Shown here piece by piece: positions 6,336-52,551 of a stretch of DNA of 64,000 nt (position 1 is the first letter of the stretch; each line of letters opens with the position of its first letter). The notes under the pieces were generated by a model. That model had not been told where the DNA came from. It made no database searches and was given only the letters and a program-made list of their open reading frames with translations. A program made the position numbers and the translations under genes. Origin of the DNA: an uncultured Clostridium sp. (lineage in GTDB: Bacteria; Bacillota; Clostridia; TANB77; CAG-508); the NCBI GenBank assembly GCA_947572725.1, contig CANPDB010000003.1:2296-66295 (forward strand), in the 5' to 3' direction.

Positions 6336-6470
6336 TTACTATTACAAATTTTGTTAATTAAAATTTTAGTATAATGATTTTATCATATATAATAAAAAAT
6401 TTCAAAAAATGGAATATTTTTTAAGAAACAATACAAAATAAGTATAGTATAAAAGAAAAAGGGTGATATT

Positions 6471-7081: not shown

Positions 7082-7097
7082 AAGAAAGGAAAGTTTT

Positions 7098-8471: not shown

Positions 8472-8755
8472 GTTGCCAAGAGGGACGGGTTTTTTTGGCA
8501 ACTTTTGTTTATCAATTAGAATAAAATAAAAAATTCTAAAATCTGAAAAAAGTGCATTGAAAGTAATTAAATTAGAAATTATTAATTTGGTTTATGGAAA
8601 TAGTTTATTTTTAATGAAAGGGTGCCATAAACCAAATTTAAAATTTCTATGAAAATTAGCTTGAACAAGCATTTTTGATAATTTTAGAATTATTTATTTT
8701 TATTATATATAAATAACGGATAAAGTTGCCCAAAAGACCCGTCCCTTTTGGCAAC
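8472..8755. repeat. family 2 paired-hairpin element, about 285-bp imperfect palindrome
   Basis: GTTGCCAAGAGGGACGGGTTTTTTTGGCAAC (8472-8502) and GTTGCCCAAAAGACCCGTCCCTTTTGGCAAC (8725-8755) are inverted copies. The interior has further inverted pairs (AATTCTAAAAT / ATTTTAGAATT; TTTGGTTTATGG / CCATAAACCAAA). Confidence 0.85.
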
Positions 8756-8765
8756 TTTTAGCATT

Positions 8766-10400
8766 TTAGTGTCTTTTATACATATCTCTTGATAATAATT
8801 CTTGAGATATTATTTTTCCATCTCGTTTTAAGATTTTATATGCTTCAGAATATATTGCTGTTCTACTTCTTCCTGTTTCATATGCACTAATTTGTACTTC
8901 GCAATCGTCTTCTTGTTTTAAACCAAATATTTGAAAATTAGCTACTCCATTTGCAACAGAACAAACTAGTTTAATTGGATATTGTCTATTGTTTTTAAAT
9001 TGAAAATCTATTGCACCATATACAACTGTTGCGTCTCTGCTTGCGGGTGCGTATGATGGAACGAATTGATGGTTTGTTCTTTGGACTATTTCTAAATTTG
9101 CATATAAAACTGCATTGTATAATGTTGTTGTTACTTGGCATATTCCTCCACCTATACCATCTACAACTTTTCCTTCAACATATATAGGAGCTTCTCTATA
9201 TCCTGCTGAGATTGTCCTTGCACCAACTACTTTATTATATGAAAAGGTTTCTCCTGACATTATTACAGTTCCATTAATTTTGTTTGCAGCTAATATTAAG
9301 TTTGTAGTTCTGTTTCTATTACTTACAGCGTAATTGGTAGAATATGTAGATAGCAAATCTGGAAATGCTTCTGTTCCTATCATATTTGTACTAACATTTG
9401 GGTATAATATCTTTAAAGGTATTGTATACTCTTCTTTTTTTTCAGATTCTATTATTGCTTTGGCTTCTTCTAATGAAATATTAAAATCTATACCATTTTC
9501 AGAAGGAAATACAGAAAATGGTTCTTTTGTATAATAAGCGTCAACAGGGTCTTTTTTTATTTCATTATATATTTTATCTATATCTATAGGATCTGGTTGT
9601 TGAGTTGTAACCGCTATTTCAATTGGAACATTATCATGGGAAAAATCGGAGATGGCAGTTTTTATTAATTCAGTTGTAGCGTTTATATCTACTACTTTAC
9701 CTTCTTTTCCTGGAGTTATAATTAGATTAGAGTCTTCTATATAATAACTACTTTGAATAACTGCATCTGGCAATTGTGTTGAAATATCTTCTAAATTTTT
9801 TGATAATTGTTCTTTATTAATAATTAATCTTGGTTCAATATTAACTTTTCCAAACATAGCAGATAATATGTATAAATTATTTTGAAAAATATTTCCTTGT
9901 CTTCCTATATGATATGCTGAATCAGTAGCTGATTTTATATCAAATGAAGTATCAATTTGTGAAAGTGAAATAGATGTCTCAAAATCTCCATATTTTAATG
10001 TTATTTCTTCAGGCAAGTTTTGTTCAACATATTTCTCTAGTTGATATTTGGCATCTGATTTGCTTAAATGTGAAACATTATATCCTTTAATATGTACACC
10101 TGAAATAATATTGCTGTTTAACATATTATAACAAGTTAAAATCAAAAATAATACTATTATAATTACAAATAATATAATAAGTAATATCTTAAATATTGAA
10201 AAAACACTTTTTTCGTTTTGGTTATTGTTTTCAGATATTTCTTTTACTGGTACAAATTTTTCTACACTTTTTTCAACAGACTTGTCTATATTAGTATTTT
10301 TGGTTTCGGATTGTTCAGTAGGTTCAGCTAAATTAGTATCAATATCTTCAGAAATAATTTCTTGTTTTTCTAAATCTTTTTCCTTTTCTTTAACGCTCAT
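8766..10400 (-). CDS. VanW family protein
   Basis: 544 aa. N-terminal TM helix. C-terminal VanW signature (GGGICQVTTTLYNAVLYANLEIVQRTNHQF). Confidence 0.85.
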   Translation of the reverse strand: MSVKEKEKDLEKQEIISEDIDTNLAEPTEQSETKNTNIDKSVEKSVEKFVPVKEISENNNQNEKSVFSIFKILLIILFVIIIVLFLILTCYNMLNSNIISGVHIKGYNVSHLSKSDAKYQLEKYVEQNLPEEITLKYGDFETSISLSQIDTSFDIKSATDSAYHIGRQGNIFQNNLYILSAMFGKVNIEPRLIINKEQLSKNLEDISTQLPDAVIQSSYYIEDSNLIITPGKEGKVVDINATTELIKTAISDFSHDNVPIEIAVTTQQPDPIDIDKIYNEIKKDPVDAYYTKEPFSVFPSENGIDFNISLEEAKAIIESEKKEEYTIPLKILYPNVSTNMIGTEAFPDLLSTYSTNYAVSNRNRTTNLILAANKINGTVIMSGETFSYNKVVGARTISAGYREAPIYVEGKVVDGIGGGICQVTTTLYNAVLYANLEIVQRTNHQFVPSYAPASRDATVVYGAIDFQFKNNRQYPIKLVCSVANGVANFQIFGLKQEDDCEVQISAYETGRSRTAIYSEAYKILKRDGKIISQELLSRDMYKRH

Positions 10401-19530: not shown

Positions 19531-20616
19531 ATGAAATTTGTACATATTGCAGATATGCATTTTGATAGTCCTTTTGTAAATCTTTCAGACAAGGGAGAGC
19601 TAGGAGATTTAAGAAGACTAGAACAAAGAAAAGTATTTAAAAAAGTAATTGAATATATAAAAGAAAATAATATAAAATACCTATTTATTTCAGGTGATTT
19701 ATATGAACAAAAATATATAAAAAAATCAACAATAGAATATATAAATAAGCTTTTTAAGGAAATACCAGAAACTAAAGTATTTATCGCACCTGGTAATCAT
19801 GACCCATTTATTAAAAATTCATATTATAATCAGTTTGAATGGAACGAAAATGTTGAAATTTTTAATTCTAGCATTAAAAAAATAGAAACAGATGAAGCGG
19901 ATATTTACGGATATGGTTTTGACGATTACTATTGTACTGATTGTGGAATAGAAAATTTTGAAATAGATAATAAGGAGAAAACAAATGTGTTAGTTCTACA
20001 CGGAACATTAGATGGAGCAAGTATTGAAGATAAGCAATATAATTCTATATCTAAGAAGATGTTGAAGAATAAAGAATTTGACTATATTGCAATGGGCCAT
20101 ATACATAAGCTTGATTATAACACAGAAGAAGAGCAAAGAATTGCATATCCTAGTTCGCCTATTTCCCTAGGATTTGATGAATTAGGAGAACACGGAATGC
20201 TAGTAGGAGAAATAGAAAAAGACAAAATTAATTTAAAGTTTATTCCTTTAGATGAAGAAGAATTTGTAGAGATTGAACTTGATATAACAGATATTTATTC
20301 TAAAGAAGATTTGATAGAAAATATAAATGACCTTGAAATTAAAGAAAATCAATATGTAAAAATTATATTAATAGGAAATAGAAATTTCGAAATAAATACA
20401 TATGAAATTATTAAATTAATTACAAATGATAGAATTATAAAAATTAAAAATAAAACAAAGATAGCATATGATTTAGAAAAGATGTCTAGTAATAATACAT
20501 TAAAAGGACTATTTGTTAAAAAAATGTTAGAAAACTTAAATGGAGATAATGTAAACGAAGAGAAAAGAAAGATAATTGAAAATGCAATTGAAATCGGATT
20601 AGATGCTTTAGAATAA
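19531..20616 (+). CDS. metallophosphoesterase, SbcD/YhaO-like DNA repair exonuclease
   Basis: Start at MKFVHIADMHFD. Calcineurin-like motifs (DMHFD, GDLYE, GNHD, GHIH). Confidence 0.8.
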   Translation: MKFVHIADMHFDSPFVNLSDKGELGDLRRLEQRKVFKKVIEYIKENNIKYLFISGDLYEQKYIKKSTIEYINKLFKEIPETKVFIAPGNHDPFIKNSYYNQFEWNENVEIFNSSIKKIETDEADIYGYGFDDYYCTDCGIENFEIDNKEKTNVLVLHGTLDGASIEDKQYNSISKKMLKNKEFDYIAMGHIHKLDYNTEEEQRIAYPSSPISLGFDELGEHGMLVGEIEKDKINLKFIPLDEEEFVEIELDITDIYSKEDLIENINDLEIKENQYVKIILIGNRNFEINTYEIIKLITNDRIIKIKNKTKIAYDLEKMSSNNTLKGLFVKKMLENLNGDNVNEEKRKIIENAIEIGLDALE

Positions 20617-20649
20617 AAGCTAATATACTATAATTTTAATTAGCTACAT

Positions 20650-20692
20650 GTTCCCAGAAGTTTATATTTTAATATTTTTTTCGAGCTATTTA
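20650..20692. repeat. internally deleted family 1 repeat
   Basis: TTCCCAGAAGTTTATATTTTAATATTTTTTTCGAGCTATTTA joins the family 1 left end directly to the right-end TTCGCGCTATTTA-like motif. Confidence 0.6.
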
Positions 20693-20743
20693 GAGTAGAT
20701 AATAATTTTAAAAATGGTTCATTCTATTTATACTTAGGAAGGA

Positions 20744-22714
20744 ATGATAGAGAAGATGAAAATAAATAAAATAAAAATAAACAATTATGGAAAATTAAAA
20801 GAAAAAGAAATAGAGTTTAAAGATAAAATAAACATTATTTATGGAGAAAACGAATCTGGAAAGTCAACTTTATTAAACTTTATTAGTAATAGTTTTTATG
20901 GTATTTCTAAAAATAAAAGAGGAAAAGAAATGTCAAACTATGAAAAATATACACCATGGACAGGAGAAGAATTTTCGGGAAAACTAGAATACCAATTAGA
21001 TAATGAAGAAAAGTTTGAAGTTTTTAGAGATTTCAGAAAGAAAAACCCTAAAATATTTAATCAAGACAAAGAAGATATATCAAAACAGTTTAACATAGAT
21101 AAAAATAACGGAAATGAATTCTTTTATGAACAAACAAAAGTAGATGAAGAATTATTTTTATCAACTGTCTTAGTAAATCAACAAGAGGTTAAACTAGGAA
21201 AATCAGAACAAAATATATTAATTCAAAAATTAGCAAATCTAGTTGGTACAGGAGATGATAAAGTTTCTTATCAGAGGGCAATAGATAGAATTAATAGAAG
21301 ACAACTAGATGAAATAGGAACACAAAGGTCTAGAGAAAAACCAATTAATATAGTAGAAAGAAATATTGAAGAATTACAAAGAGAAAAAGAAGAACTAGAA
21401 AAATATGAAGACTTTAAATATGAGATAGAAGAAAAAGAGAACAATGTGAATGAAGATATAACAAATTTAGAAAATGAAAACAACTACTTAAAAGAAATAA
21501 AACTAATGCATGAAAATGAAAAAATCGAATTAGAAAAAATCAAGCTAAAAGAAAATATGAAAAACGAAAACTTACAAAAAGTAGAAACATTAAAAAATAA
21601 ATTAGAAGAGATAAAAAGTAATAACATTTTAGAAGAAAATAATGAAAAAGCAATTAAAAATGATGAAAAAACTGTTAAAAAAGATAAATTAAATAAAGAA
21701 ATAGCTTTATTTTTTATAATTTTAGTAATAATTAATATTGCTCAATTTATATTTAATAAAGAAAATATAACTAAATATATATTTCTCTTAACAATACCAA
21801 TCTATTTAATAATTTCTATATTTATTAAATCTAAAGCAAATAAGAAACAAAACATACAAGAAATAGAAGATAATGAGCTAGAGGAAGGATTAAAACGAGT
21901 AAATTTAGAAATTAGTAATTTGAAAAATGAGATAAATCTATTAGAAAAGAATAATGACTCTTTAGAAGAAGAAATAAATGAATTAAAAAGTAAGTTTAAT
22001 TTAAAAGTAGGTTTGGAAAAAGAAAAGATACAAAATAAGTATTTAACTAAAATAGAAAAAGGTAAATTGGATAAGCTTAAAAATTTAGAAGACATTAATT
22101 ATGAGATACAAGTTTTAGAAAATAAAATAAATGCACAAAAGATTAAATTACATACTTTAGAAATAGATAAGAAAAACATAGAACCAAAATTAGAAAATTT
22201 ATCAAAGATTGAAGAAAAAATAGTTTACAATAATGAAAAAATGTCAACTTTAAAAACATTAGAAGAGAGTATGGAATTAGCAAAAAATATCTTAAGTGAT
22301 TCTTATGAAGAAATGAAAAGTACAGTTACCCCTAAGTTTACACAAAATTTGTCAGAAAATATTTCAAACATAACAGATGGCAAATATACAAATATTAGAT
22401 TTAATGATGAACAAGGATTAATAGTTGAGTTAGAAAATGGTAATTATGTATCTGCAACACAATTAAGTATTGGAACAATAGATCAATTATACTTATCTTT
22501 GAGACTTTGTATGCTTGAAGAATTGTCAGATGAAAAAATGCCAATTATATTAGATGAAGCTTTTGCTTATTATGATACAGAGAGATTAACTAATATTTTA
22601 AAATATATTAATGATAAATTTACTACTCATCAAGTTATTATTTTTACTTGTACTAATAGAGAAAAGGAGATTTTGAATAATTTACATATTAATTATAATT
22701 GCATTAATTTGTAA
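20744..22714 (+). CDS. AAA/SMC-like ATPase, SbcC/YhaN-like
   Basis: N-terminal Walker A (GENESGKST), long coiled coil with two central TM helices, C-terminal signature and Walker B (LSIGTIDQLYLSLRL...PIILDEAF). Alternative start at 20756. Confidence 0.75.
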   Translation: MIEKMKINKIKINNYGKLKEKEIEFKDKINIIYGENESGKSTLLNFISNSFYGISKNKRGKEMSNYEKYTPWTGEEFSGKLEYQLDNEEKFEVFRDFRKKNPKIFNQDKEDISKQFNIDKNNGNEFFYEQTKVDEELFLSTVLVNQQEVKLGKSEQNILIQKLANLVGTGDDKVSYQRAIDRINRRQLDEIGTQRSREKPINIVERNIEELQREKEELEKYEDFKYEIEEKENNVNEDITNLENENNYLKEIKLMHENEKIELEKIKLKENMKNENLQKVETLKNKLEEIKSNNILEENNEKAIKNDEKTVKKDKLNKEIALFFIILVIINIAQFIFNKENITKYIFLLTIPIYLIISIFIKSKANKKQNIQEIEDNELEEGLKRVNLEISNLKNEINLLEKNNDSLEEEINELKSKFNLKVGLEKEKIQNKYLTKIEKGKLDKLKNLEDINYEIQVLENKINAQKIKLHTLEIDKKNIEPKLENLSKIEEKIVYNNEKMSTLKTLEESMELAKNILSDSYEEMKSTVTPKFTQNLSENISNITDGKYTNIRFNDEQGLIVELENGNYVSATQLSIGTIDQLYLSLRLCMLEELSDEKMPIILDEAFAYYDTERLTNILKYINDKFTTHQVIIFTCTNREKEILNNLHINYNCINL

Positions 22715-22738
22715 ATTATTTAGTATCAATTTTATTTA

Positions 22739-22976
22739 GCAATCAATTAATTTTCTTTTAGTTAATTATATTTTTTAAACTACTCACTCCCAGAGGTTTA
22801 TAATTATATATTTTTTCACTGCCCCAACCTAAAAATTCTAAAGAAAAGTTTTTTAAACTTTTCTAAGAATTTTTGGATGGTCACCCCGGAGTCGTTCAAA
22901 AGGTATATAATTATAAACCTCTTCGCGCTATTTAAATTTTAACTTATAATTAACTAAAAGAAAATTAATCGATTGC
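22739..22976. repeat. nested-hairpin repeat family 1, copy C, inside a 38-bp flanking inverted repeat
   Basis: Core 22780-22937. The outer stem AGAGGTTTATAATTATATA / TATATAATTATAAACCTCT is perfect. The flanks GCAATCAATTAATTTTCTTTTAGTTAATTATA and its reverse complement bound the whole unit. Confidence 0.85.
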
Positions 22977-23052
22977 TATATTAATATTGAAAAATATGCC
23001 AATTTGTGGTAATATTAACAAAGTAAAAACAAAAAGGTAAAGGAGAATTTTT

Positions 23053-24111
23053 ATGTTTGAAAAATTAGAAGCTGTTGAGAAGAGATATGATGAGTTAACA
23101 AAATTAATAGCAGACCCAGAAATAATATCAAACCAAGCAGAATGGCAAAAATTAATGAAGGAACATGCAAGTATAGAAGATATAGTAATAAAATTTAGAG
23201 AATACAAAAAAACAAAACAAGACATGGAAGAAGCAGAAGAACTAATGCAAGACCCTGATATGAAAGAATTAGCAGAAAGTGAATATTACACAGCAAAAGA
23301 AGCATTACCAAAAATAGAAGAAGAACTAAAAATATTATTAATACCAAAAGACCCAGATGATGACAAAAATATCATTTGTGAAATCAGAGCAGGAGCAGGG
23401 GGAGAAGAAGCAGCACTTTTTGCAGGAACATTATTTAGAATGTATACAATGTATGCTGAGAAAAAACATTGGAAACTAGAAGTTCTAAATGAAAACGATA
23501 CTGGACTTGGAGGATACAAAGAAATTTCTTTTATGATTACAGGAAAAGGTGTATATAGTAGACTAAAATTTGAAAGTGGAGTACATAGAGTACAAAGAGT
23601 ACCAGACACAGAAAGTAGTGGAAGAATACATACATCAACAGCAACAGTTGCAATGCTTCCAGTAGTAGAAGATGTGGAAATAGAAGTAAATCCAGCAGAT
23701 ATAAAAATGGAAGTATTTAGAGCTTCAGGAGCAGGAGGACAACATATTAACAAAACATCATCAGCCGTAAGACTAATCCACGAACCAACAGGGATAGTAG
23801 TAGAATGTCAAACAGAAAGATCACAATTCCAAAATAAAGATAACGCAATGAAAATGCTTAGAACAAAATTATATGAAATAGAAAAACAAAAACAAGACAG
23901 TGAGATATCAAATGCCAGAAAGTCTCAAGTAGGTTCAGGAGATAGAAGTGAAAAGATAAGAACTTATAACTATCCACAAGGTAGAATTACAGACCATAGA
24001 ATAGGAATGAGTATTTATCAAATGGAAAACTTCTTAAATGGAGATATTGATGAAATGGTAGATAACTTAATTGCAGCAGACAGAGCAGAAAGATTAAAAG
24101 GTGAAGAATAA
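23053..24111 (+). CDS. prfA: peptide chain release factor 1
   Basis: 352 aa. GGQ motif ([11 protein letters not shown]) and the RF1-type recognition loop [17 protein letters not shown]. Confidence 0.95.
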
Positions 24112-24120
24112 ATAATAAAT

Positions 24121-24333
24121 GTGACAAAAGGGGCGTCCCTTTTTGTCACATAAAAATTATATATTTAAAATGTTATTATATTTTTTATTTGCAACTCCCA
24201 ACTGCACACAGTCTGTAAATTCTTAACAGACTGTAGCTTGTCGGTCCCCACGAAATGTTGCTTCATAAAGAAATATAATAACATTTTATAAAAAACAAAT
24301 TTGTGTGACAAAAAAGGGCGCCCCTTTTGTCAC
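24121..24333. repeat. composite palindrome: family 2 hairpin pair enclosing a minimal CTCCCA...GGTCCCCAC unit
   Basis: GTGACAAAAGGGGCGTCCCTTTTTGTCAC (24121-24149) and GTGACAAAAAAGGGCGCCCCTTTTGTCAC (24305-24333) are inverted. Inner core is GCAACTCCCAACTGC-hairpin-AGCTTGTCGGTCCCCACGAAATGTTGC (24191-24261). Confidence 0.85.
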
Positions 24334-24347
24334 AGGAGGTAAAAAAC

Positions 24348-24890
24348 ATGAAATTATTAGTAGTATCAGATATTCATGGGTCAGGATATTATGCGAAAAA
24401 GATAAAAGAAATTTATGAAAAGGAGCAACCTGATAAATTGATTTTATTAGGAGATTTATATTATCATGGACCAAGGAATCCATTGACGGAAGGATATAAT
24501 CCAGGTGAAGTTGCAAGTATATTAAATGGTCTTAAAGATAATATAAAATGCATTAAAGGAAATTGTGATGCAGAAGTAGATGAGATGATTTCAGAGTTTC
24601 CATTAGAAGATTATATTATTATGGATGTTAATGGGTATAAAATCTTTTTTACACACGGACATAAATACAATATAGATAAACTTCCAAAAGAGGATTTTGA
24701 TATTCTTGTTTATGGGCATTTCCACACAGGTTTTATAAAAGAGAAAGATGGTAAATTGTTTATTAATAGTGGCTCAATTACTTTACCAAAAGATAATACA
24801 GAACATAGCTATTTAATAATAGATGAAGATAAAATTGTGTTAAAAAATATAGATGGAAAAATAATAGAACAAAGAGATTTAAAAGCTTAA
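24348..24890 (+). CDS. YfcE/MJ0936-family metallophosphoesterase
   Basis: Start at MKLLVVSDIHGS. Motifs GDLYYHG, GNCD, THGH, GHFH. Confidence 0.8.
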   Translation: MKLLVVSDIHGSGYYAKKIKEIYEKEQPDKLILLGDLYYHGPRNPLTEGYNPGEVASILNGLKDNIKCIKGNCDAEVDEMISEFPLEDYIIMDVNGYKIFFTHGHKYNIDKLPKEDFDILVYGHFHTGFIKEKDGKLFINSGSITLPKDNTEHSYLIIDEDKIVLKNIDGKIIEQRDLKA

Positions 24891-24902
24891 GGAGGGAAAA
24901 TA

Positions 24903-26021
24903 TTGAAAGATAAAAGAATAGAAAAGCTTGCAAATAATTTATTGACTTATTCAATTGATTTAAAACCAAATGAAAATTTATTAATTGAAGTTTTAGGAGA
25001 AGATGGGATACCTCTAGCTAAAGAGTTAATTAAACAAGCAGAAGAAATGAAAGCAAGACCATGTTTCAATATTATAAATTATGAATTATTACGCGAAATG
25101 CTTAAAAATTGTAGCGAAGAACAAATCAAACAGTATGCTAAATATGACTTAGTAAAAATGAAAGATGCAGATGCTTATATTGGAATTAGGGCAAGTAGTA
25201 ATATAGCAGAATTAAGCGATATAGATAATGAGAGGATAGAGTTGTATAACAAATATTATACTTTGCCAGTTCATTTTGAAGAAAGAGTGAAGAATACCAA
25301 ATGGTGTATATTAAGATACCCTAACAATTCTATGGCACAAATGAGTAATATGAGCTTAGAAAAGTTTGAAGATTTTTATTTTGATGTTTGTAATTTAGAC
25401 TATAAAAAAATGTCAAAAGCAATGGATAATCTAGTAAATTTGATGAATAAAACAGATAAGGTACATATACTTGGAAAAGATACAGACTTAACATTTAGTA
25501 TTAAAGGAATACCAGCAGAAAAGTATTGTGGAAACTTTAATATACCAGATGGTGAAGTTGCATCAGCACCAGTAAAAGATAGTGTAAATGGTTATATTAC
25601 ATACAACACAGAAACTTCTTACAATGGAAAGCATTTTAATAATATAAGATTTGAATTTGAAAATGGAAAAATTATAAAAGCAACTTCTAATAATGACGAA
25701 GAACTGAACAAAATACTAGATACTGATGAAGGTGCAAGATATATAGGAGAATTTGCAATTGGTTTAAATCCATATGTCCAAAAGCCAATTGGTGATACAT
25801 TATTTGATGAGAAAATCAAAGGTAGCTTTCATTTTACACCAGGTGATAGCTTAGAAGAAAGCGATAATGGTAATCGTTCAAGTATTCATTGGGACATTGT
25901 AATGATTCAAACACCAGAATATGGCGGAGGAGAAATATGGTTTGATGATGTGCTAATTCGTAAGGATGGAAGGTTTGTATTAGATGAACTATTAAAATTA
26001 AATTCTGAAAACCTAATATAA
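24903..26021 (+). CDS. aminopeptidase, M29 (AmpS/PepS) family
   Basis: TTG start after RBS AAGGAGGG. 372 aa with an M29-like N-terminus (IEKLANNLLTYSIDLKPNENLLIE) and C-terminal EFAIGLNP / SIHWDIV blocks. Confidence 0.8.
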   Translation: MKDKRIEKLANNLLTYSIDLKPNENLLIEVLGEDGIPLAKELIKQAEEMKARPCFNIINYELLREMLKNCSEEQIKQYAKYDLVKMKDADAYIGIRASSNIAELSDIDNERIELYNKYYTLPVHFEERVKNTKWCILRYPNNSMAQMSNMSLEKFEDFYFDVCNLDYKKMSKAMDNLVNLMNKTDKVHILGKDTDLTFSIKGIPAEKYCGNFNIPDGEVASAPVKDSVNGYITYNTETSYNGKHFNNIRFEFENGKIIKATSNNDEELNKILDTDEGARYIGEFAIGLNPYVQKPIGDTLFDEKIKGSFHFTPGDSLEESDNGNRSSIHWDIVMIQTPEYGGGEIWFDDVLIRKDGRFVLDELLKLNSENLI

Positions 26022-26048
26022 TAAATAAAATATTATATTAGGTTTTAT
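26010..26048 (+). terminator. intrinsic terminator overlapping the aminopeptidase stop codon
   Basis: AACCTAATATAAT ... ATTATATTAGGTT followed by TTAT. A second 15-bp hairpin (TTACAGTTTAGTATA / TATACTAAACTGTAA) follows at 26051-26105. Confidence 0.6.
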
Positions 26049-26174
26049 GGTTACAGTTTAGTATAGAAATTATTTAATTGCTTCCATATGTTTATACTAA
26101 ACTGTAACATTTTATGTTAAAAACTATAAAGATAATATTTACAACAACATATTAAAAAGATATAATAAATTTAG

Positions 26175-26930
26175 GTGATGATAATGAAGAAAAAGGAAAC
26201 ATATTTAAATAGACTATTGAATGATATAGTTTTTATAATAATGGGAATTGTAATTTCAATTATTATAGCTAGTGGCTTTTTTTATTTATTTTTTGCAAAG
26301 GATATAGGATTGAAGAATGCTAAAGAAAAAGGAACAAAAGTAATAGCTACAATAGCTGATATAGAAGAACGTGGAAACCCACTTCATAATCCATATGAAG
26401 AAAATCGTTCTATAAGAAATATGACATTAACTTATAGTTATAGAGGAAAGGAATATACAAATGTAACTTCTAGTTCATATAAAAAAGCTAGTATTGGAGA
26501 TGTAATTACAATTTACATTATAGATAATAATCCCAATAATATTGTTGTAGAGCTTCCAAATTCATCATGGATTCCATATTTTGCATTTGCTTTGTTAGGT
26601 TTAATCTTAATTGGTTGTATTTATTCGTTGATTGTAACGATAAAACAATGCTTACTATATAAAAAATCACAGAAATTTACAACTATTACAGGAAACTTTT
26701 CACATATAGAATCACGAAATCATATGGGATATACTAAATATTATATAATTTGTGAATCAGATGAAATAGGAGGATTCAATAGAAGTTTTAAAAGCCATTA
26801 TTATTCTGAAAATCCTTCTGACTTTATAGAAAAGCGTAACAGAAAGACATTTAAAATAAAGTATAATCCAGCAAAGCCAAAAGAGTACATCGTAGATACA
26901 GATGGTTTTGACAACCAATTTTTAAAATAG
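26175..26930 (+). CDS. DUF3592-like membrane protein
   Basis: N-terminal TM helix, beta-rich middle region, second TM helix (IPYFAFALLGLILIGCIYSLIV). Same architecture as the 29137 ORF. Confidence 0.55.
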   Translation: MMIMKKKETYLNRLLNDIVFIIMGIVISIIIASGFFYLFFAKDIGLKNAKEKGTKVIATIADIEERGNPLHNPYEENRSIRNMTLTYSYRGKEYTNVTSSSYKKASIGDVITIYIIDNNPNNIVVELPNSSWIPYFAFALLGLILIGCIYSLIVTIKQCLLYKKSQKFTTITGNFSHIESRNHMGYTKYYIICESDEIGGFNRSFKSHYYSENPSDFIEKRNRKTFKIKYNPAKPKEYIVDTDGFDNQFLK

Positions 26931-27025
26931 AAATCATAGATAAAAAGTTCTAAAAAATGATTAAAAAATTGGAAATTTTTAGAAAATTGTTTGACAAATG
27001 CAAAAGAATACGTTACTATTTAATT

Positions 27026-27105
27026 ACAAAATAAATGAACTTTGAATGTCGCTAGTATTCAAATCATAACAGTGTGTGTACCACGAATACACATGCTATT
27101 TTTTG
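27026..27105 (+). ncRNA. candidate sRNA, copy 1 (paralog of 29701-29787)
   Basis: Promoter TTGACA-17-TACTAT at 26991-27019. Hairpin 1 at 27041-27063. Terminator hairpin AGTGTGTGTA-CCACGAA-TACACATGCT plus T-run. The promoter through +15 is near-identical to copy 2. Confidence 0.45.
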
Positions 27106-27294
27106 TCAAAAATAGAGCAGACCACGAATATGCTCTACGACTAAATACAGCTAATTAGTCTTAACTTTGTTGTCATCTTGCATTTGCTTATGTTGTTGTT
27201 CTAATTGTTGTTGTAATATAATGTTTTTTTAAATGAATAAAATAAAGCTCTTTAAAATAAACTGTATATAAGAATATTTAAAGGAGTTTTTTTA

Positions 27295-27750
27295 GTGGAA
27301 GAAATATTAAAAACAACATTATTAGGTTTATTTTTTGGAACATTTGGTACTACATTAGGAGGAATTATAGGAGTTATTATAAAAAAACACTCAAATAAAT
27401 TTTTGAGTTCAATTTTATCATTTGCATCAGGACTAATGATGGCAGTAATATGTTTTGATTTAATTCCTGAGGCATTAGGAATTAGCAGTATTTTTAATAT
27501 AATAGTTGGAATAGTAGTTGGTATAATTGCAATGATATTTTGTGATATATTAGTTGAAAGAAAATTCAGTAATACAAAAAGATTTGAAGGAGAAAAGAAT
27601 TCATTATTAAAAACAGGCATTATTGTATCAATTGGTTTGGCAATTCATAATTTTCCAGAAGGATTAGCAATTGGATCTGGATTTGAAGCTTCAATGAAAT
27701 TGGGACTAAGTTTAGCTTTAGCAATTTGCTTGCATGATATACCAGAAGGA
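27295..27750 (+). pseudogene. zupT: ZIP family metal transporter (ZupT-like), 5-prime part, interrupted by an integrated element
   Basis: GTG start after AAGGAG. Motifs HNFPEGLAIG and HDIPEG. The frame leaves transporter sequence right after HDIPEG and stops 11 codons later. The rest of the protein (ISMAVPM...GELIPES...) resumes at 34871. Confidence 0.85.
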
Positions 27751-28182
27751 AGATTCCAAAGTAGACACCAAGTGAAATATGCTTGATAAACGATTTGAAT
27801 TTAAATTAAATTTTAAATAGAAAATGCATACGTTATTAAAATAAGTAAAGTATGTATTTTTTTTGCTCAAAATAATTAGATAAATGAAGAATTTTTTGTA
27901 TTAAAAGTATAAAATTTTTGATAATTTGTAAAGTAACAAAATTTGATAGGTATCGAAATGAGCAAACCATTGAAAACAAAAGAGTTTATAATATTGATTT
28001 GATAGTTTTGTGAGTGGAGGTAAGTAGACGATAGCGTATGCTATCGAATATCTTACCATAAGGGACAATTTAGTGATAAATTATAAAAAGAATTTTAAGT
28101 GAACAAATGAAAAGGAATAGAAGATAAAAAAGTTGATTTTTTATTGATTTTAATGTTAATATATATACTAGGAGATTTTTAA

Positions 28183-29106
28183 ATGAACAGAATAAAACAG
28201 AATATAAATGAATTTTTAATGCAATTATGTATTTATTGTATAGTGTTTGTTCCAATAGGAGCTGTTATGATATATGTAAAAGCTAATTTTATAAGTGAAA
28301 TAATAATATGCATTATATCTTTTATAATATTTACATATATTAAAATAAAAATTGAAAAAAAAATAAGAATAAAGCCAATTTTTAATGAAAAATATTATAG
28401 AGATATTCCAAATATAAAACCTGCAATATTGAAATTTTATATTTCTAAAGGAAAATATTATAATGATTATTATGATTTTTATGCTACAATTTTAGATTTA
28501 ATAAATAGGAGATATTTATTATTAAATTTTAAAACAAAAATATTAACAATAAATCAAGGAGCAAATTTAAATAATTTAGAAACATTTGAATTAAATATTA
28601 TTGAATTATTATTTTATAAGAGAAATCAAACAGAGATAGACTTTACAAAACTGAAATATGAATTAGAAAATGATGAATTATTTTATGCAAAAATAGAAGC
28701 ATGGAAAATGCTTGTTATAATAGCAGCTAATAATAATATATATTTAGACACTAATAAGAAAATTGATTTATTAAGAAAAATATCAGGATTAATAGCGGGT
28801 GTTATTCCTTTTATATTTTTAATATTACCTTCAATGTTTCAAATTAATGATATTTGGTGTGGCTTTGTTTGTGCTATCGAAATAGGTGGTTGGTGTTTAG
28901 CAAGTATAAACAATAAAACATATTCAAAAGAAATAATAGAAGAAATTGAAAAATCAAAAGCATTAGCGAGATATGTAAAAGATTATTCAATGATCAAGGA
29001 AAAAGGTATAAATGATGTAGTAATTTGGGAAGGATATTTAGTATATTCAGTTATATTAAATACACCAGATAAAATAAAAAAATATTTCGATGATATATTT
29101 AGATAA
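28183..29106 (+). CDS. DUF2207-like membrane protein (C-terminal half only)
   Basis: 307 aa. YYRDIPNIKPAILKFYIS segment, TM helices, C-terminal WEGYLVYSVILN, reminiscent of DUF2207. Confidence 0.5.
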   Translation: MNRIKQNINEFLMQLCIYCIVFVPIGAVMIYVKANFISEIIICIISFIIFTYIKIKIEKKIRIKPIFNEKYYRDIPNIKPAILKFYISKGKYYNDYYDFYATILDLINRRYLLLNFKTKILTINQGANLNNLETFELNIIELLFYKRNQTEIDFTKLKYELENDELFYAKIEAWKMLVIIAANNNIYLDTNKKIDLLRKISGLIAGVIPFIFLILPSMFQINDIWCGFVCAIEIGGWCLASINNKTYSKEIIEEIEKSKALARYVKDYSMIKEKGINDVVIWEGYLVYSVILNTPDKIKKYFDDIFR

Positions 29107-29136
29107 TAAAACATCAAATGTGTTTCTTTATTAAAA

Positions 29137-29598
29137 ATGAAAGGAAGTGTTGTTATGAATTTTTTTAGGAGAAATTCTGGAGCATTAATTATAGTTGGAA
29201 TAATATTAATAATTTTTTATTTTACAGTTTTATTTTATAATAATTTTTATGAAGATAAAATGAAAACTACAGTATTAAGAACTGGAGAGATCCAAGTTTT
29301 TTATGGAGATGGTTTAAAAGATTTAAAAGATGTTAATACTACAGGATTGGATGATATTACATATTATAAAGACATAACAATAGAGATTAATGGAAAAGAG
29401 ACAGTTTTTAAAGATTCACAACAAACTGTAAGAAAATTAGCAAATATAAATGAAGAAATAACTATATATAAAGATAAAAATGGAAATATACAGAGATATA
29501 CAAACACGACAAAGTTTATGAATTTTTTCTGCCTATTTACTGGAATTATTCTATTGAGTACGGCATTTATTAGCAAAATATCAATAAAAAGAAAATGA
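29137..29598 (+). CDS. DUF3592-like membrane protein
   Basis: N- and C-terminal TM helices flank a beta-rich segment. Possible start at 29155 (MNFFRRN). Confidence 0.5.
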   Translation: MKGSVVMNFFRRNSGALIIVGIILIIFYFTVLFYNNFYEDKMKTTVLRTGEIQVFYGDGLKDLKDVNTTGLDDITYYKDITIEINGKETVFKDSQQTVRKLANINEEITIYKDKNGNIQRYTNTTKFMNFFCLFTGIILLSTAFISKISIKRK

Positions 29599-29665
29599 TT
29601 ATCCATCCTTATATTCTAATTGCAAATTTGGTACAGAAAATATTGGAAAATTCTAGAAATTTGAT

Positions 29666-29694
29666 TTGACAAATGCAAAAGAATATGTTATTAT
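29666..29694 (+). promoter_or_regulatory. consensus-like sigma-A promoter of the candidate sRNA
   Basis: TTGACA, 17-nt spacer, TATTAT. Duplicated at 26991-27019. Confidence 0.6.
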
Positions 29695-29700
29695 TTAATT

Positions 29701-38681: not shown

Positions 38682-38711
38682 TAGATACAATGAATATAAA
38701 AAATATTTATT

Positions 38712-38857
38712 TACTCCTAGAAGTTCATATTTTGTATTTTTACGTTATCCCCATTCTAAAAATCCTAACAAAAGTTCTATGAACTTTTGAGGATTTTTGA
38801 ACGGTCCCCACAATTTCACTTCAAAATAAAAATATGAACTTCTTCGCGCTATTTAAA
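38712..38857. repeat. nested-hairpin repeat family 1, copy B (compact form)
   Basis: Same order of blocks as copy A but without A's 105-bp insert. Outer stem is GAAGTTCATATTTT / AAAATATGAACTTC. Confidence 0.85.
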
Positions 38858-39219
38858 TATTCTATACTAAATTGTAAACAATAATATTTTATAAATAATT
38901 ACTTGAGTTAGAGGTTTGTAAATTAAATGCAAACTTCTTAATTATTACCTATAATGTTACAATCCATAGTTTATATAAATTTGTGTATAAAATCAATAAC
39001 AATGAATTGTAAAAAATATAAATTGCTAGAATAACACAGAAGATAAAAATGGGAGATAAAGCGAAAAAAAGAGAGATAATCAATAAAAAAGAAACAAAAC
39101 ATACAAAAATTGGCCTTTTTAATCTTTGCAAAAAAACAAATATTACAATAATATTACAATAACATTACAAATATTTCAAACATACAAGAGAATTAATAAT
39201 AGTACAAAGGAGCCTAAAA

Positions 39220-48895: not shown

Positions 48896-49036
48896 TAGCG
48901 CGAATGATGTTATATATTTTATTTTTTGAGTGGTTCCAGGGTGACCGTTTTAGAATATGTTTGAACGAATGTGAAATACATATTCTTAAATGGGGCAACG
49001 AAAAAAAATACAAATATATAACATTATGGGAGCGGA
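48896..49036. repeat. nested-hairpin repeat family 1, copy D (reverse orientation), inside the mreC-mreD spacer
   Basis: The reverse complement reads CCGCTCCCA-outer stem-TTTTTCGTTGCCCCATTT-inner hairpin-AAACGGTCACCC...-outer stem-TTCGCGCTA, matching copies A-C block for block. Confidence 0.8.
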
Positions 49037-49111
49037 AATTTATAGATTAACTTTAATATGACAAATAGAAGGCGGAAATTTATAGATTAGTTATAAGATA
49101 ACAAATAAAAG
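49032..49111 (+). repeat. tandem duplication, 2 x 40 bp
   Basis: GCGGAAATTTATAGATTAACTTTAATATGACAAATAGAAG and GCGGAAATTTATAGATTAGTTATAAGATAACAAATAAAAG, directly upstream of the mreD RBS. Confidence 0.8.
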
Positions 49112-49117
49112 AAAGAG

Positions 49118-49660
49118 GTGAATCAATTGAAAAAGACTATTATTAATATTATTCTTGTTGTAATTGCATTATTTATATACTTTTTACAATCAAACTTTTT
49201 CAATTGGTTTAACATAGCAGGCATTATGCCAAATATGTTTGTTATATTTGTTTTATTTATAGGATTATTTGCAAGTACAAAAATGGGAAGTATTTATGGC
49301 TTAGCACTTGGTTTTATATTGGATTGTGTCATAGGAACAAAAATAGGGATTTATGCAGTATGTTTAGGGATTGTAGGATTTTTATCAGGAACATTTGATA
49401 AAAATTTTTCTAAAGATAGTAGAATGACAATTATGCTAATGGTATTAGGAAGTACAATAGTTTTTGAAGTAATTAAATATATATTAAATTATTTCTTTAT
49501 TTCATCAAATGTTGAAATATTTAATTTTATAAAGATATTAATAATAGAAACTTTATACAATATTATTTTAACAATTATTTTATATCCAATATTCAGAAAA
49601 TTTGGATATTATATAGAAAATGAATATAAAGGGAATACAGTATTAACACGATATTTTTAA
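49118..49660 (+). CDS. mreD: rod shape-determining protein MreD
   Basis: Polytopic membrane protein of about 180 aa in the mreD position. GTG (49118) or TTG (49127) start. Confidence 0.7.
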   Translation: MNQLKKTIINIILVVIALFIYFLQSNFFNWFNIAGIMPNMFVIFVLFIGLFASTKMGSIYGLALGFILDCVIGTKIGIYAVCLGIVGFLSGTFDKNFSKDSRMTIMLMVLGSTIVFEVIKYILNYFFISSNVEIFNFIKILIIETLYNIILTIILYPIFRKFGYYIENEYKGNTVLTRYF

Positions 49661-49681
49661 TATAGAAAAGAAGGTGAAAGT

Positions 49682-51799
49682 TTGGCAAAAAATACGAAGA
49701 ATATAAGTAAAAGTAATATTAATTTAAGATTTAATATTTTAACAGTATTAACATATATAGTAGGAATTATACTAATTGCCAGACTATTTAATCTTCAAAT
49801 AGTGCATGGTGCTGAGTATAGGGAAGGATCTAATACAAGACTTACAAGAGAAAGTGTTTTAGAGGCATCAAGAGGTTCAATAATAGACAAAACAGGAACA
49901 ACCTTAGTAAATTCAAAAATGGAATTTTCTTTAGAAATGTATAAAAGTAAAGTTGATACTGAAGTTTTAAACCAATCAATTTTGAATATGGTAAATATAT
50001 TAGAAAAATATGAACTTGATTATGTGGATTCTCTACCAATAAAAGTGGAACCTTTTGAATATAAAATTTCTGAAAAAGAATTAGAAAATTGGAAAAAGGC
50101 AAATAACTTAGAAAATGACTTATCAGCAGAGCAGGCTTTTTACAAGTTAAAAGATAAATACAAAATTAAGAATGATGATATACAAGAAACAAGAAAGATT
50201 ATGACCTTAAGATATGAATTATCTCAAAAGGGATATAGTAGCACTAAAGCTGTTAAAATAGCTGGAAATATATCAAGAGAAGCTGTTGCAGAATTTAGTG
50301 AAAGTTCAGAAAAATTTGCAGGTATTAACATTGTAGTGCAACCTATAAGACAATATACTTCTGGAAACTTAGCATCACACATTTTAGGATATGCGGGAAA
50401 AATAAGTAGTGAAGAGTATGAAAAAAGGAAAAGTACTTACGGCAGTAATGACCTGATAGGAAAAACTGGAATTGAATATGTATTTGAAGAATATCTAAAA
50501 GGAAAAAACGGAACAAAACAAATCGACATGGCCGTTGATGGAACAACAACAGCGGAATATGTTTCACAAGAAGCAATAGCAGGCTCAGATATTGTATTAA
50601 CAATAGATGCTAATTTACAACACATAGCAGAAAATGCACTTGCATCTAACATTCAAAAAATATCTAGTGGAGGATTTGGACGAGCATATGATGCTAAAGC
50701 TGGTGCTTGCGTAGTTATGAATGTTAACTCAGGAGAAGTATTAGCAATGGCAAGTTATCCAGATTACAATCCAGAAGATTTTGTTGGTGGAATAAGTAAT
50801 GAAGCATGGAATAAATATACAAATAATTCAGCTAAACCACTAGTAGATAAAGCAATACAAAATTCATATTCACCAGGTTCAACATTTAAGATGATAACAG
50901 CTATAGCAGGACTAGAATCAGGAGCAATAAATTTAAATACAAAAATCAATGATACAGGTGTATATAAAAAATATGGAATTTCAATGAATTGTTGGTATTA
51001 TACAGATTACCATAGAGGACACGGATACTTAGATGTATCAGGTGCAATTGAAAAGTCATGTAACTATTTCTTCTATGAAACAGGAGATAGAATGGGAATT
51101 GACAAATTAGCAGAATTTGCTAGATATTTTGGACTTGGTGGAAAAACAGGAGTAGAGCTACAAGGAGAAACAGGAGGAGTATTAGCAAGTAGAGAAACAA
51201 AAAGTCAAATGCATCCAGATGATCCAAACTGGAATCCAGGAAACACTCTAAATGCTACAATAGGACAAGGAGATAATGAATTCAGCCCAATACAAATGGC
51301 CAGATACATAAGTATGCTCGCAAATGGAGGACACAAAATCGATGTTAGTATAGTAAAAACAATAAGGAATGCAGATGGGTCAGAGGTATCTCGAGAAGAT
51401 ATTAATAAATTTGTAAATAAAAAATTAGGGCTAGAGGAAGATACCACAGAAGAACTACAAATAAATCAAAATCATTTAAAGGCTGTATTACAAGGTATGA
51501 AATCTGTTACAAGTGATACAGAAGGAACAGCATACGTTAGATTCAAGGATTTTGATATAAGTGTAGGTGGTAAAACAGGTTCAGCAGAAGCACCAAATAA
51601 TCAAGTACATGCATGGTTTGTTGGATTTGCGCCATTTGAAAATCCTGAAATAGCAATAGTTGTTATGGTAGAAAATGGAGGTCATGGAAACTATACAGCA
51701 GAAGTAGTTAGGGATATTATGGCTGAGTACTTTGGAATGAATACTCAAAATATAGAAGAAAATATGAATGCAACACCATTTATAGAAATAATGCAATAG
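49682..51799 (+). CDS. mrdA: penicillin-binding protein 2 (class B transpeptidase)
   Basis: TTG start. N-terminal TM helix. Motifs STFK (GSTFKMIT), SCN, KTGS. Confidence 0.9.
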   Translation: MAKNTKNISKSNINLRFNILTVLTYIVGIILIARLFNLQIVHGAEYREGSNTRLTRESVLEASRGSIIDKTGTTLVNSKMEFSLEMYKSKVDTEVLNQSILNMVNILEKYELDYVDSLPIKVEPFEYKISEKELENWKKANNLENDLSAEQAFYKLKDKYKIKNDDIQETRKIMTLRYELSQKGYSSTKAVKIAGNISREAVAEFSESSEKFAGINIVVQPIRQYTSGNLASHILGYAGKISSEEYEKRKSTYGSNDLIGKTGIEYVFEEYLKGKNGTKQIDMAVDGTTTAEYVSQEAIAGSDIVLTIDANLQHIAENALASNIQKISSGGFGRAYDAKAGACVVMNVNSGEVLAMASYPDYNPEDFVGGISNEAWNKYTNNSAKPLVDKAIQNSYSPGSTFKMITAIAGLESGAINLNTKINDTGVYKKYGISMNCWYYTDYHRGHGYLDVSGAIEKSCNYFFYETGDRMGIDKLAEFARYFGLGGKTGVELQGETGGVLASRETKSQMHPDDPNWNPGNTLNATIGQGDNEFSPIQMARYISMLANGGHKIDVSIVKTIRNADGSEVSREDINKFVNKKLGLEEDTTEELQINQNHLKAVLQGMKSVTSDTEGTAYVRFKDFDISVGGKTGSAEAPNNQVHAWFVGFAPFENPEIAIVVMVENGGHGNYTAEVVRDIMAEYFGMNTQNIEENMNATPFIEIMQ

Positions 51800-51915
51800 G
51801 TTGCCAACGGTTCCGGGTTTTTTTGGCAACTTGTAATACATATATTTATTATTTATAGCTGAATATAAGTTTAATGTTGTAATAGTTGCCAAAAAAACCC
51901 GGAACCGTTGGCAAC
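51800..51915. repeat. family 2 paired-hairpin element with perfect 31-bp inverted ends
   Basis: GTTGCCAACGGTTCCGGGTTTTTTTGGCAAC (51800-51830) and its exact reverse complement (51885-51915). The 54-bp spacer begins and ends with TTGTAATA. Confidence 0.9.
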
Positions 51916-51939
51916 CTCTTAGCAAGGAAAGGATGTAAA

Positions 51940-52551
51940 ATGAAAAATTGTGTTAGTATTAACTTAAGAACAGACAAAATAGTAATCAAATTAAATGACG
52001 AAGTAGAACATAAAGATATAGTTGAATGTCTAAAAAAGAAATTACCAGAGCTTAAAAAGTTATATAAAGATGAGAAAACGCCAATTAACGTTACAGGAAG
52101 AGTACTAAAGAATAAAGAAATAAAAGAACTGGAATCACTAATTAAGGAAAAAATTGATGTTGAAATTGATTTTGATATGCCAAAGACTCTAGGGCTACAT
52201 AGCATTAAGAAAACTTTTGAAAAGGACATAGTATTGTCAGAGACGAAGTTTCACGTTGGTTCTTTACGTTCAGGAAAGAAAATAGAATCAGAGGGCAGTA
52301 TTGTTATTGTTGGAGATGTTAACTCAGGGGCAGAGGTAATAGCATCAGATAATATTGTAATACTTGGCACTTTGAGAGGGCTAGCGCATGCAGGAGCAAA
52401 AGGTAATAGGCAAGCAATTATTGCAGCAGGACTAATTGATACTGTTCAAATAAGAATTGCAGATATTGTAAAAGAAATAAATAGAGCTGAAGAGCCTATG
52501 CACAAACAATCCTGTGTTAGAATTATAGATGAAAAAATAGTAATAGAATAA
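51940..52551 (+). CDS. minC: septum site-determining protein MinC
   Basis: Start at MKNCVSINL after AAGGAAAGG. C-terminal beta-helix signature GSIVIVGDVNSGAEVIASDNIVILGTLRGLAHAG. Confidence 0.85.
   Translation: MKNCVSINLRTDKIVIKLNDEVEHKDIVECLKKKLPELKKLYKDEKTPINVTGRVLKNKEIKELESLIKEKIDVEIDFDMPKTLGLHSIKKTFEKDIVLSETKFHVGSLRSGKKIESEGSIVIVGDVNSGAEVIASDNIVILGTLRGLAHAGAKGNRQAIIAAGLIDTVQIRIADIVKEINRAEEPMHKQSCVRIIDEKIVIE

Follow-up and report, generated by a model that had tools for sequence, protein, structure and literature searches.

Arrangement of the locus

Positions 51800–51915 of a 64,000-nucleotide stretch of DNA from an uncultured Clostridium sp. (GenBank assembly GCA_947572725.1, contig CANPDB010000003.1; this stretch is further referred to as the window) contain two inverted copies of a short hairpin that occupy the gap between two genes. 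The upstream gene (49682–51799, plus strand) encodes a PBP2-type transpeptidase according to Pfam; its start is the one given in the track of open reading frames (ORFs). The downstream gene is minC (Pfam MinC), with the true start at 51940 (51940–52551, plus strand). We refer to such a pair of hairpins as a doublet, to single hairpins as units or, within a doublet, as arms, and to unpaired copies as solos. The doublet is a member of a previously undescribed family of repeats in a group of uncultured gut Clostridia. As judged from sequence, this family, located at gene boundaries, probably ends or punctuates transcripts.

The left arm (51800–51830, plus strand; GTTGCCAACGGTTCCGGGTTTTTTTGGCAAC) has the stem GTTGCCAA/TTGGCAAC and the loop CGGTTCCGGGTTTTT, and its first base directly follows the PBP2 stop codon, leaving a gap of 0 nt. 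The right arm (51885–51915, plus strand) is the exact reverse complement of the left one (31/31). The distance from its end is 24 nt to the minC ATG and 8–9 nt to the minC Shine-Dalgarno sequence; the start assigned to minC in the ORF track (51886) lies inside this arm. The AT-rich spacer between the arms (51831–51884, 54 nt) begins and ends with the same word, TTGTAATA (51831–51838 and 51877–51884). When the arms are extended to 51795–51841 and 51874–51920, the complementarity equals 89%. An earlier note on this DNA had reported four such doublets and one solo in the window, with arms matching within a locus and differing between loci, and had likened them to repetitive extragenic palindromic (REP) sequences and bacterial interspersed mosaic elements (BIMEs). 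The count and the matching pattern are borne out by the sequence, and the analogy holds for what is a dispersed family with more than 100 copies in relatives.

A repeat family with a conserved loop

Loci of related genomes (designated below by numbers with the prefix L) were picked by a degenerate pattern of the TTGCC subtype, one genome per species, and hence the copy numbers and subtype frequencies are biased; the pattern played no part in the choice of the window or of the other units in the fetched loci. The scan with the unit pattern yielded at least 113 matching stretches. Among the matches listed, about 80 were low-GC loci from about 15 species represented by gut metagenome-assembled genomes (MAGs; uncultured Clostridia, Clostridium sp., Eubacteriales), and the remaining ones were single chance hits in unrelated phyla. 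Exact look-ups of MinC found the organism in metagenome assemblies only, and an exact look-up of YpeB matched no further contig.

The unit consists of a stem of 7–10 bp with a variable sequence and a loop with the conserved core GGGACGG on one strand and CCGTCCC on the other. We call these strands the G-form and the C-form, respectively. The G-form consensus is GTTGCCAAAGGGGACGGGCCATTTTGGCAAC, and the C-form is its complement; the subtype found at the PBP2–minC locus has the core variant GGTTCCGGG. In this orientation, the left arm at the focal locus is a G-form unit and the right arm is a C-form unit. The alignment of mixed subfamilies by MAFFT misaligned the stem families, and therefore consensus folding was replaced by a stem test anchored solely on the hexamer CGTCCC, with no stem presupposed. 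This hexamer occurs 156 times in 654 kb of related low-GC DNA; a perfect stem of 7 bp or more surrounds it in 116 cases, and most of the other occurrences are imperfect or composite members of the family. The same core was found in at least ten unrelated stems (TTGCCAA, TAGGGAT, GGGATTT, AGGGAAA, GATGATT, TTGAACG, TGTCCAA, ATCGGGA, TGAGACA, TGTGACA). Therefore the loop is the conserved part of the unit, and the stem, the variable one. Given that the G+C content of the window is 27% and that the hexamer is enclosed by stems so often, chance similarity is excluded.

The location of the units is that expected of terminators and leader hairpins, and a generic terminator scan accepts some of them. 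Hence they could be regarded as ordinary terminators and 5'-untranslated region (UTR) hairpins that evolved independently and resemble each other by chance or due to base composition. This explanation is refuted by the near-identity of 31–35-nt units at dozens of non-orthologous loci across species and by the core hexamer being nearly always enclosed by a stem. The exact inverted duplication of asymmetric loops within loci also speaks against it.

Several subfamilies are composite, with two GTCCC words per unit (ATGTCCCAAACAGAAACGTCCCCAATTGGACA; GGTCTGTCCC...CACGTCCC); such units were seen at L046 1880–2060, L095 3445–3490, L115 3848–3934, L041 2552–2867, and L043 7742–7856. As these units carry GTCCC twice, the elemental conserved word may be GGGAC/GTCCC, which at times would also form a part of the stem.

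In the library searched, no paper matched the unit sequences. The only hit of Rfam in the window at the gathering score was the signal recognition particle RNA. At permissive E-values, three loci matched only generic long-hairpin (miRNA precursor) models below the cut-offs, and a known RNA family was thus rejected. The scan of viral contigs produced one chance hit with 39% G+C, which provided no grounds for a phage origin.

Position and polarity relative to genes

In the fetched loci, 109 of 113 elements (about 96%) are located outside called genes, and the four intragenic exceptions look like gene-calling artefacts at the locus edges. The enrichment at gene boundaries expected by the earlier note was observed, and the placement is not random: the distance to a gene end is at most 12 nt for 26 of 57 solos, compared to 13.7 ± 2.6 expected if solos were spread uniformly over the same gaps, and this number was not attained in any of 5000 randomisations. 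A typical doublet starts 0–18 nt after the preceding stop codon and ends 13–24 nt before the following start codon, this distance including the Shine-Dalgarno sequence. The doublet takes up a median of 74% of its intergenic gap. Doublet spacers are mostly 38–47 nt long, and the total length of a doublet is about 104 nt. Solos outnumber doublets and are kept at orthologous sites.

The polarity is fixed. All 36 doublets (36/36) have the order G-form, AT-rich spacer, C-form on the plus strand. In solos near boundaries, the strand reading outward from the gene is the G-form in 40 cases of 50, for stops and starts alike. In terms of mRNA, the G-form follows stop codons, whereas the C-form is situated 0–8 nt upstream of ribosome-binding sites.

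The filling of the gap exactly from the stop codon to the ribosome-binding site, emphasized in the earlier note, is most simply explained if the elements inserted and survived in intergenic gaps that are very short. Doublets would enter gaps between a stop codon and a ribosome-binding site, and the copies observed would be the ones that spared both the stop codon and the Shine-Dalgarno sequence. The fit would then look exact because only such insertions survive.

RNA folding and terminator-like features

Units fold with energies from −8 to −21 kcal/mol, mostly far below those of shuffled controls. The two strands differ: folding of the consensus gave −17.4 kcal/mol for the G-form RNA and −14.8 kcal/mol for the C-form RNA. 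The G-form RNA makes use of G-U pairs, which extend the stem to 12–15 bp and leave a loop of 5–6 nt. In the window, the G-form units at 8470 and 24120 have energies of −16 and −21.3 kcal/mol, respectively. The G-form is also followed by a T-rich tract: the frequency of T at positions +2 to +5 is 0.77, 0.89, 0.72 and 0.62, and at least five T among eight nucleotides are seen behind 59% of G-form strands, compared to 31% of C-form strands.

A generic terminator scan of the region 6000–25999 flagged seven sites, of which three are units in the G-form orientation: 8470–8504 (plus strand), 24334–24304 (minus strand), and 19516–19490 (minus strand). A fourth site overlaps the unit at 24304–24334. 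Since the outward-reading form has the more stable hairpin followed by a T-tract, and three units of the window are flagged, the statement of the earlier note that the hairpins are not plain terminators was too strong.

RNA reading through the focal doublet is predicted to fold by arm-to-arm pairing with the energy of −74.8 kcal/mol (z = −13.3). Long perfect RNA duplexes are the kind of structure cleaved by RNase III.

Evolution at orthologous loci

Comparison of orthologous intergenic regions in relatives, proposed by the earlier note, revealed polymorphism: different species have a doublet, a solo, or unrelated sequence with no unit at the same junction. The locus L119 is syntenic with positions 21454–38356 of the window (76–88% identity). 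Its prfA junction contains one solo with a fully compensated stem TTTGCC/GGCAAA, whereas the window has there the TGTGACA doublet with a spacer of about 152 nt. At the PBP2–minC junction, relatives with 83–84% MinC identity keep the doublet with 0–1 mismatches between the arms. The arms change in concert: the pairs AACGG/CCGTT, AATGG/CCATT and AAAGG/CCTTT were found (C, T or A in position 9), and a TTT-to-AAA block is altered in both arms. In the relative with 79% MinC identity, the gap is 65 nt long and holds just one unit, which is decayed; the relative with 94% identity has a different core subtype beside minC.

Tandem partial duplications of the stem, 9–14 nt long, are mirrored on the other arm, e.g. 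three consecutive copies of GGTTGCCAA that immediately follow the PBP2 stop codon. Such duplications were seen at L133 2339–2500, L135 2346–2500, L136 2319–2500, L001 2677–2722 and L008 54–105, and they differ between samples of one species (L135 and L136). The identity of the arms may be maintained inside the element by gene conversion or template switching; the latter, acting between close inverted repeats, is suggested because the mirrored duplications are otherwise hard to explain.

Variants of the sequence track orthologous loci across species rather than genomes. This indicates vertical inheritance with constraint and rules out genome-wide homogenisation. The units are nearly invariant, loops included, where the flanking genes are 72–96% identical, whereas spacers of orthologous doublets may have no detectable similarity (L060 and L076, z about 0).

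Such invariance of whole units next to freely diverging spacers is in line with a host cis-element selected for itself, with copying being secondary. The core would be bound by a dedicated RNA- or DNA-binding protein, or, within one transcript, the C-loop of the 5' UTR would base-pair with the G-loop of the 3' UTR. The constancy of the loop core over at least ten unrelated stem families fits this explanation, as do the location of the C-form immediately upstream of Shine-Dalgarno sequences and the existence of genes such as ypeB whose 5' end bears a C-form and whose 3' end bears a G-form, the two cores being complementary. On the other hand, no candidate protein was identified, the loop sequence at PBP2–minC changes between species with only the identity between arms retained, and inter-arm conversion accounts for much of the conservation of doublets. 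We regard selection of this kind as an unlikely primary cause, and it is compatible with the repeat explanation given below.

Spacers also provide the evidence relevant to inversion switches (mini-invertons), in which recombination at the 31-bp inverted repeats would flip a promoter located in the spacer and in this way control the downstream gene. The spacer is inverted between the orthologous doublets L019 and L040 (z = 9.4 for the reversed and 0.7 for the forward comparison). The Logan contigs L008 and L132 have the minC-proximal spacer in the orientation opposite to that in the window and in L001. One promoter-like match (TTGGCA, 18 nt, TATTAT) straddles the left arm and the spacer of the focal doublet at 51823–51852. 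However, L008 and L132 are k = 31 assemblies, and an inverted repeat of at least 31 nt makes the spacer orientation in them arbitrary; therefore within-species inversions were not counted as evidence. The single between-species inversion is predicted by template switching at inverted repeats as well. Moreover, −10 hexamers show no positional enrichment relative to the C-form start, nor at 16–19 nt from the TTGGCA of the arm, which leaves a promoter at a fixed place in the spacer and a role of this TTGGCA as the −35 box statistically unsupported. Spacers of 20–47 bp are generally considered to be below the synapsis length for known invertases, and there is no recombinase nearby. Hence inversion switches are very improbable.

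Copying to new loci was observed for one subtype. A doublet with the AGGGAAA stem and its spacer are 85% identical over 104 nt between L024:2051 and L040:5793, where the flanks are unrelated, and more copies of this subtype were found in one metagenome. For TTGCC-subtype doublets, spacers are unrelated between copies. At two unrelated loci (L040 5771–5921 and L140 5901–6049), a doublet with the AAAGGGAAAT stem is nested between half-units of another stem family, the outer half-units being the 5' stem plus core and the core plus 3' stem. The junction is identical at both loci and lies just past the core of the outer loop (GGGGACGGACGA|AAAGGG). Judging by the two sequences, it could mark a specific insertion or cleavage point. 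No doublet is flanked by target-site duplications, and the alignment of the L024 doublet with L086 and L091 was too untidy for setting the ends of the insertion.

These data may be confronted with a classical miniature inverted-repeat transposable element (MITE) of the terminal-inverted-repeat type: the hairpins would be the ends of a cut-and-paste element mobilised in trans by a DDE transposase, and solos would be its decay products. The preferred doublet size, the repetition of the AGGGAAA doublet together with its spacer at a non-orthologous locus, and the rearrangements and contig breaks at elements (see below) are in line with such an element. The missing target-site duplications are not. 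Further, the outermost bases vary by subfamily (GTTGCC, TAGGGAT, AGGGAAA, TGAGACA, TGTCCAA and others), while the conserved core is situated 9–17 nt inside; solos exceed doublets in number and are conserved at orthologous sites; and no transposase was seen in the window and the sampled loci. We consider the MITE explanation quite improbable.

Probable nature of the doublet and a putative mobilising enzyme

In our opinion, the best explanation, with a probability of roughly 0.6, is that the segment 51800–51915 is a doublet of lineage-specific REP/BIME-like (REPIN-like) palindromic repeats, REPIN denoting a pair of REPs in inverted orientation, and that these repeats act as oriented terminators, protectors of RNA ends and RNase III-type punctuation. 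From sequence and folding we infer the following function and mode of spread. The outward-reading G-form RNA, a hairpin of 12–15 bp followed by a U-tract, would be an intrinsic terminator or a protector of the 3' end of the adjoining gene. In transcripts that read through, the arms would pair into a duplex of at least 31 bp, a probable substrate of RNase III. The cleavage would leave the downstream mRNA, here that of minC, with a 5' hairpin just ahead of the ribosome-binding site, and the doublet may thus uncouple or attenuate the expression of PBP2 and minC. The repeats would spread via an enzyme specific to single-stranded hairpins, similar to the HUH or RAYT (REP-associated tyrosine transposase) enzymes and recognising the loop core.

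Several observations weigh against this explanation. Searches by tblastn with IS608 TnpA and Escherichia coli RAYT as queries, which covered the window and about 0.75 Mb of the fetched loci, found no Y1/RAYT/IS200-type gene. Genes with units on both sides are housekeeping ones (QueA, PheS, a flavoprotein, YpeB). The canonical GT[AG]G foot of REPs is absent. The spacers of the main subtype are mostly unrelated, and copying of whole doublets was seen for one subtype only. The co-variation of arms can be explained by DNA conversion alone, without an RNA function. Finally, the focal left arm is the weakest case of a terminator: its local RNA hairpin has the energy of −12 kcal/mol (z = −2.2), only four of the following eight nucleotides are T, and the terminator scan did not flag it. 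For this reason the arm-to-arm duplex appears a likelier RNA effect at PBP2–minC than termination.

Candidates for a RAYT/IS200 transposase were also sought by Pfam among the genes flanked by units and among the L001 genes that replace PBP2; these proved to be housekeeping or Tad-like proteins, with no transposase among them, and such a transposase was rejected for the sampled DNA. A tentative and rather unlikely option is that the loop core GGGACGG/CCGTCCC serves a dedicated enzyme or RNA-binding protein as the site of recognition or nicking. It is suggested by the conservation of the core over at least ten stem families and by its adjoining the nesting junction.

Comparison with known repeats

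REP, BIME and REPIN definitions were taken from PMC6006769, PMC3337134 and PMC3116915; a canonical REP has GT[AG]G at the hairpin foot and a RAYT gene flanking it (PMC6006769). Like the REPs of Enterobacteria and Pseudomonas, associated with RAYT/TnpA_REP, the Clostridia units are imperfect palindromes of 20–40 nt in many copies, almost wholly extragenic, often just past stop codons and between genes of an operon. Their basic higher-order unit, as in BIMEs and REPINs, consists of two inverted copies around a short spacer in a fixed relative orientation. In both cases, there are several sequence subfamilies per genome, the repeats are vertically inherited and long-lived, and they are hot spots for other insertions and rearrangements. 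At the same time, there are essential differences. In the Clostridia units the loop is conserved and the stems vary, which is the reverse of REPs. Their feet (AAGTTGCC, ATAGGGAT, AAAGGGAA, ATGAGACA, ATGTGACA, TGTCCAA) share no tetranucleotide, and thus no GT[AG]G foot is conserved. Unlike those of BIMEs and REPINs, the spacers are mostly not conserved among copies. Neither a RAYT gene nor a REPtron was found in the sampled DNA, and the host is a low-GC lineage of Clostridia. RAYT groups with abundant REPs are mainly found in Proteobacteria, and in Clostridia only the repeat-poor Group 1 was reported (PMC5581495). By this analogy the family appears to work like REPs and BIMEs and is not a demonstrated member of them.

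Similarly to DNA uptake sequences (DUS) of Neisseria and uptake signal sequences (USS) of Pasteurellaceae, inverted copies of a short conserved word recur downstream of genes, where they form terminator-like hairpins (PMC2267715, PMC1852404). However, each hairpin of the Clostridia family has a single copy of its word, in the loop; this word is far sparser and nearly absent from coding DNA, and nothing points to a link with competence. The low density and the near absence from coding DNA rule out an uptake sequence. Small intergenic stem-loop repeats of Firmicutes (Clostridium perfringens, Clostridium tetani, Streptococcus pneumoniae) are of the same general class (PMC2267715).

The Clostridia doublets have no conserved body, fixed terminal repeats or TA target duplication, and their arms are self-folding hairpins. 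In these respects they differ from Correia elements of Neisseria (Correia repeat enclosed elements, CREE, also known as Neisseria miniature insertion sequences, NEMIS). Those are inverted-repeat elements of about 100–150 bp near genes; their body is conserved, their 26-bp terminal repeats have fixed ends, they show a TA target duplication, and their arms are not self-folding hairpins. Correia elements are transcribed into long hairpins cut by RNase III and can serve as terminators or promoters. No cognate transposase is known for them.

REP and REPIN repeats are well studied in Proteobacteria and poorly documented in Firmicutes. The Clostridia family is a second, independent system for analysis of how repeats spread, persist and become integrated into the transcript architecture. 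In practice, the repeats mislead gene callers by creating false N-termini, break short-read assemblies and mark rearrangement points in gut MAGs, whereas the arms are a simple annotation marker of true gene boundaries. If the proposed RNA roles are true, the repeats would affect the stoichiometry of mreBCD–PBP2 and minCDE (cell shape and division) and of sleB and ypeB (spore germination). If the loop core is indeed recognised by a dedicated factor, Clostridia would have a vertically inherited partnership of a repeat and an enzyme similar to REP–RAYT, reading the loop rather than the foot, and hundreds of gene boundaries would be marked by oriented terminator or processing modules.

Other copies in the window

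In total, the window contains four inverted doublets and one solo, that is nine units of 31–35 nt, with a density of about one per 10 kb. Searches for perfect 6-bp stems around loops containing G and C and for loop-core words recovered these copies and none besides in the 64 kb. All four doublet pairs are among the seven longest inverted repeats detected in the window by the repeat finder. Their stems vary by locus (TGAGACA, GTTGCC, TGTGACA) and match inside each locus. Pfam assignments of the neighboring genes are a SleB-type hydrolase, YpeB, RF-1, a PBP transpeptidase, MinC and two Metallophos proteins.

Between sleB and ypeB, the G-form arm with the TGAGACA stem (6945–6976, plus strand) includes the sleB stop codon TGA in its stem, and the C-form arm (7051–7082, plus strand) ends 15 nt ahead of the ypeB ATG (7098); the segments 6945–6977 and 7050–7082 are 94% complementary. 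The G-form arm at 8470–8504 (plus strand; AAGTTGCC...GGCAACTT) is located right after the ypeB stop codon and is flagged as terminator-like, with a 15-bp stem, a 5-nt loop and a T-rich tail. Its C-form counterpart (8722–8757, plus strand) is separated by 8 nt from the stop codon that ends a convergent VanW-like gene (8766–10400, minus strand). The pair 8470–8505/8722–8757 is 92% complementary, and the spacer of 216–218 nt is a long imperfect palindrome. After prfA, the G-form arm with the TGTGACA stem (24120–24150, plus strand) starts 7–8 nt past the stop codon, and the C-form arm (24304–24334, plus strand), terminator-like on the minus strand, ends 13 nt ahead of the ATG of a yfcE-like gene (24348). 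If extended (24120–24186/24268–24334), this pair has 67-nt arms that are 84% complementary, and its spacer (24151–24303) contains another palindromic repeat. The solo is a C-form unit (19490–19516, plus strand) 14 nt ahead of the ATG of a yhaO-like gene (19531), with the terminator-like G-form on the minus strand.

The distances from stop codons to left arms in the window are −4, −2, 7 and 0 nt. Thus, hairpins do adjoin the stop codons, as well as the ypeB, yfcE-like, minC and yhaO-like starts, as the earlier note had described, with the exception of the unit at 8722–8757, which adjoins the stop of the convergent gene. The solo is placed between divergent genes as described, but its divergent partner is weak, being a 91-aa ORF for which Pfam gave no more than a marginal hit. 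The false N-terminal extensions in the ORF track were confirmed, since the starts (TTG/ATG) annotated at 7029, 19489, 24327 and 51886 fall inside the right units.

Two other structures were seen in the vicinity of the solo. The segment 19420–19479, just upstream of it, carries an unrelated inverted repeat of 11 bp (TACTAGTCAGC ... GCTGACTAGTA) whose loop measures 38 nt. The other structure, at about 19050–19075, is a terminator-like hairpin of the conventional kind, past the gene ending at 19028.

Spacer insertions, rearrangements and other repeats

The spacer of the focal doublet contains one terminal repeat of a MITE (51845–51865, TTTATTATTTATAGCTGAATA), and the palindromic MITE is complete at the same position in L001 and L002. 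The hint of an insertion into the spacer given by the earlier note is supported to this extent; a reading of TTGTAATA as a target duplication is unproven, because the two words do not directly flank the MITE. Long spacers in general hold other palindromic MITEs, which also occur away from hairpins, and as judged from these sequences the long spacers are secondary. At least two MITE families are present inside doublet spacers of different species, with hairpin-free copies at L085 4146–4315 and L041 2635–2785, and doublet spacers seem to be favored landing sites. Long palindromic MITE-like repeats were also noted at positions 24151–24303, 14706–15020 and 22731–22984 of the window, as well as at L001 2737–2925, L014 4135–4369 and L021 676–905.

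L001 and L002 come from two samples of one and the same species, and the identity from minC onward is 99.9%. Upstream, in the region 1–2950 (compared with 48940–51840 of the window), a Tad/Flp-like locus on the opposite strand, with genes for a SAF-domain protein and a ParA/MinD-like ATPase, precedes minC in place of mreD–PBP2. Because the junction falls inside the doublet spacer and MITE, the alignment indicates a chromosomal rearrangement at the repeat. Short-read contigs often start or end in doublet spacers or MITEs (L006–L009, L124–L130, L132). As a consequence, assemblies of this lineage are fragmented and chimeric joins are possible (e.g. L128).

The window contains two further dispersed repeat families with 73–88% identity, which are unrelated to the hairpin units and have no match in Rfam at the gathering score. 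Copies of the second one are located at 26963–27142 and 29637–29828. The first is found at 6045–6334, 38699–38877 and 22786–22940 and shares the motif GGTCCCCAC, which is also present at 14970 and 24246.

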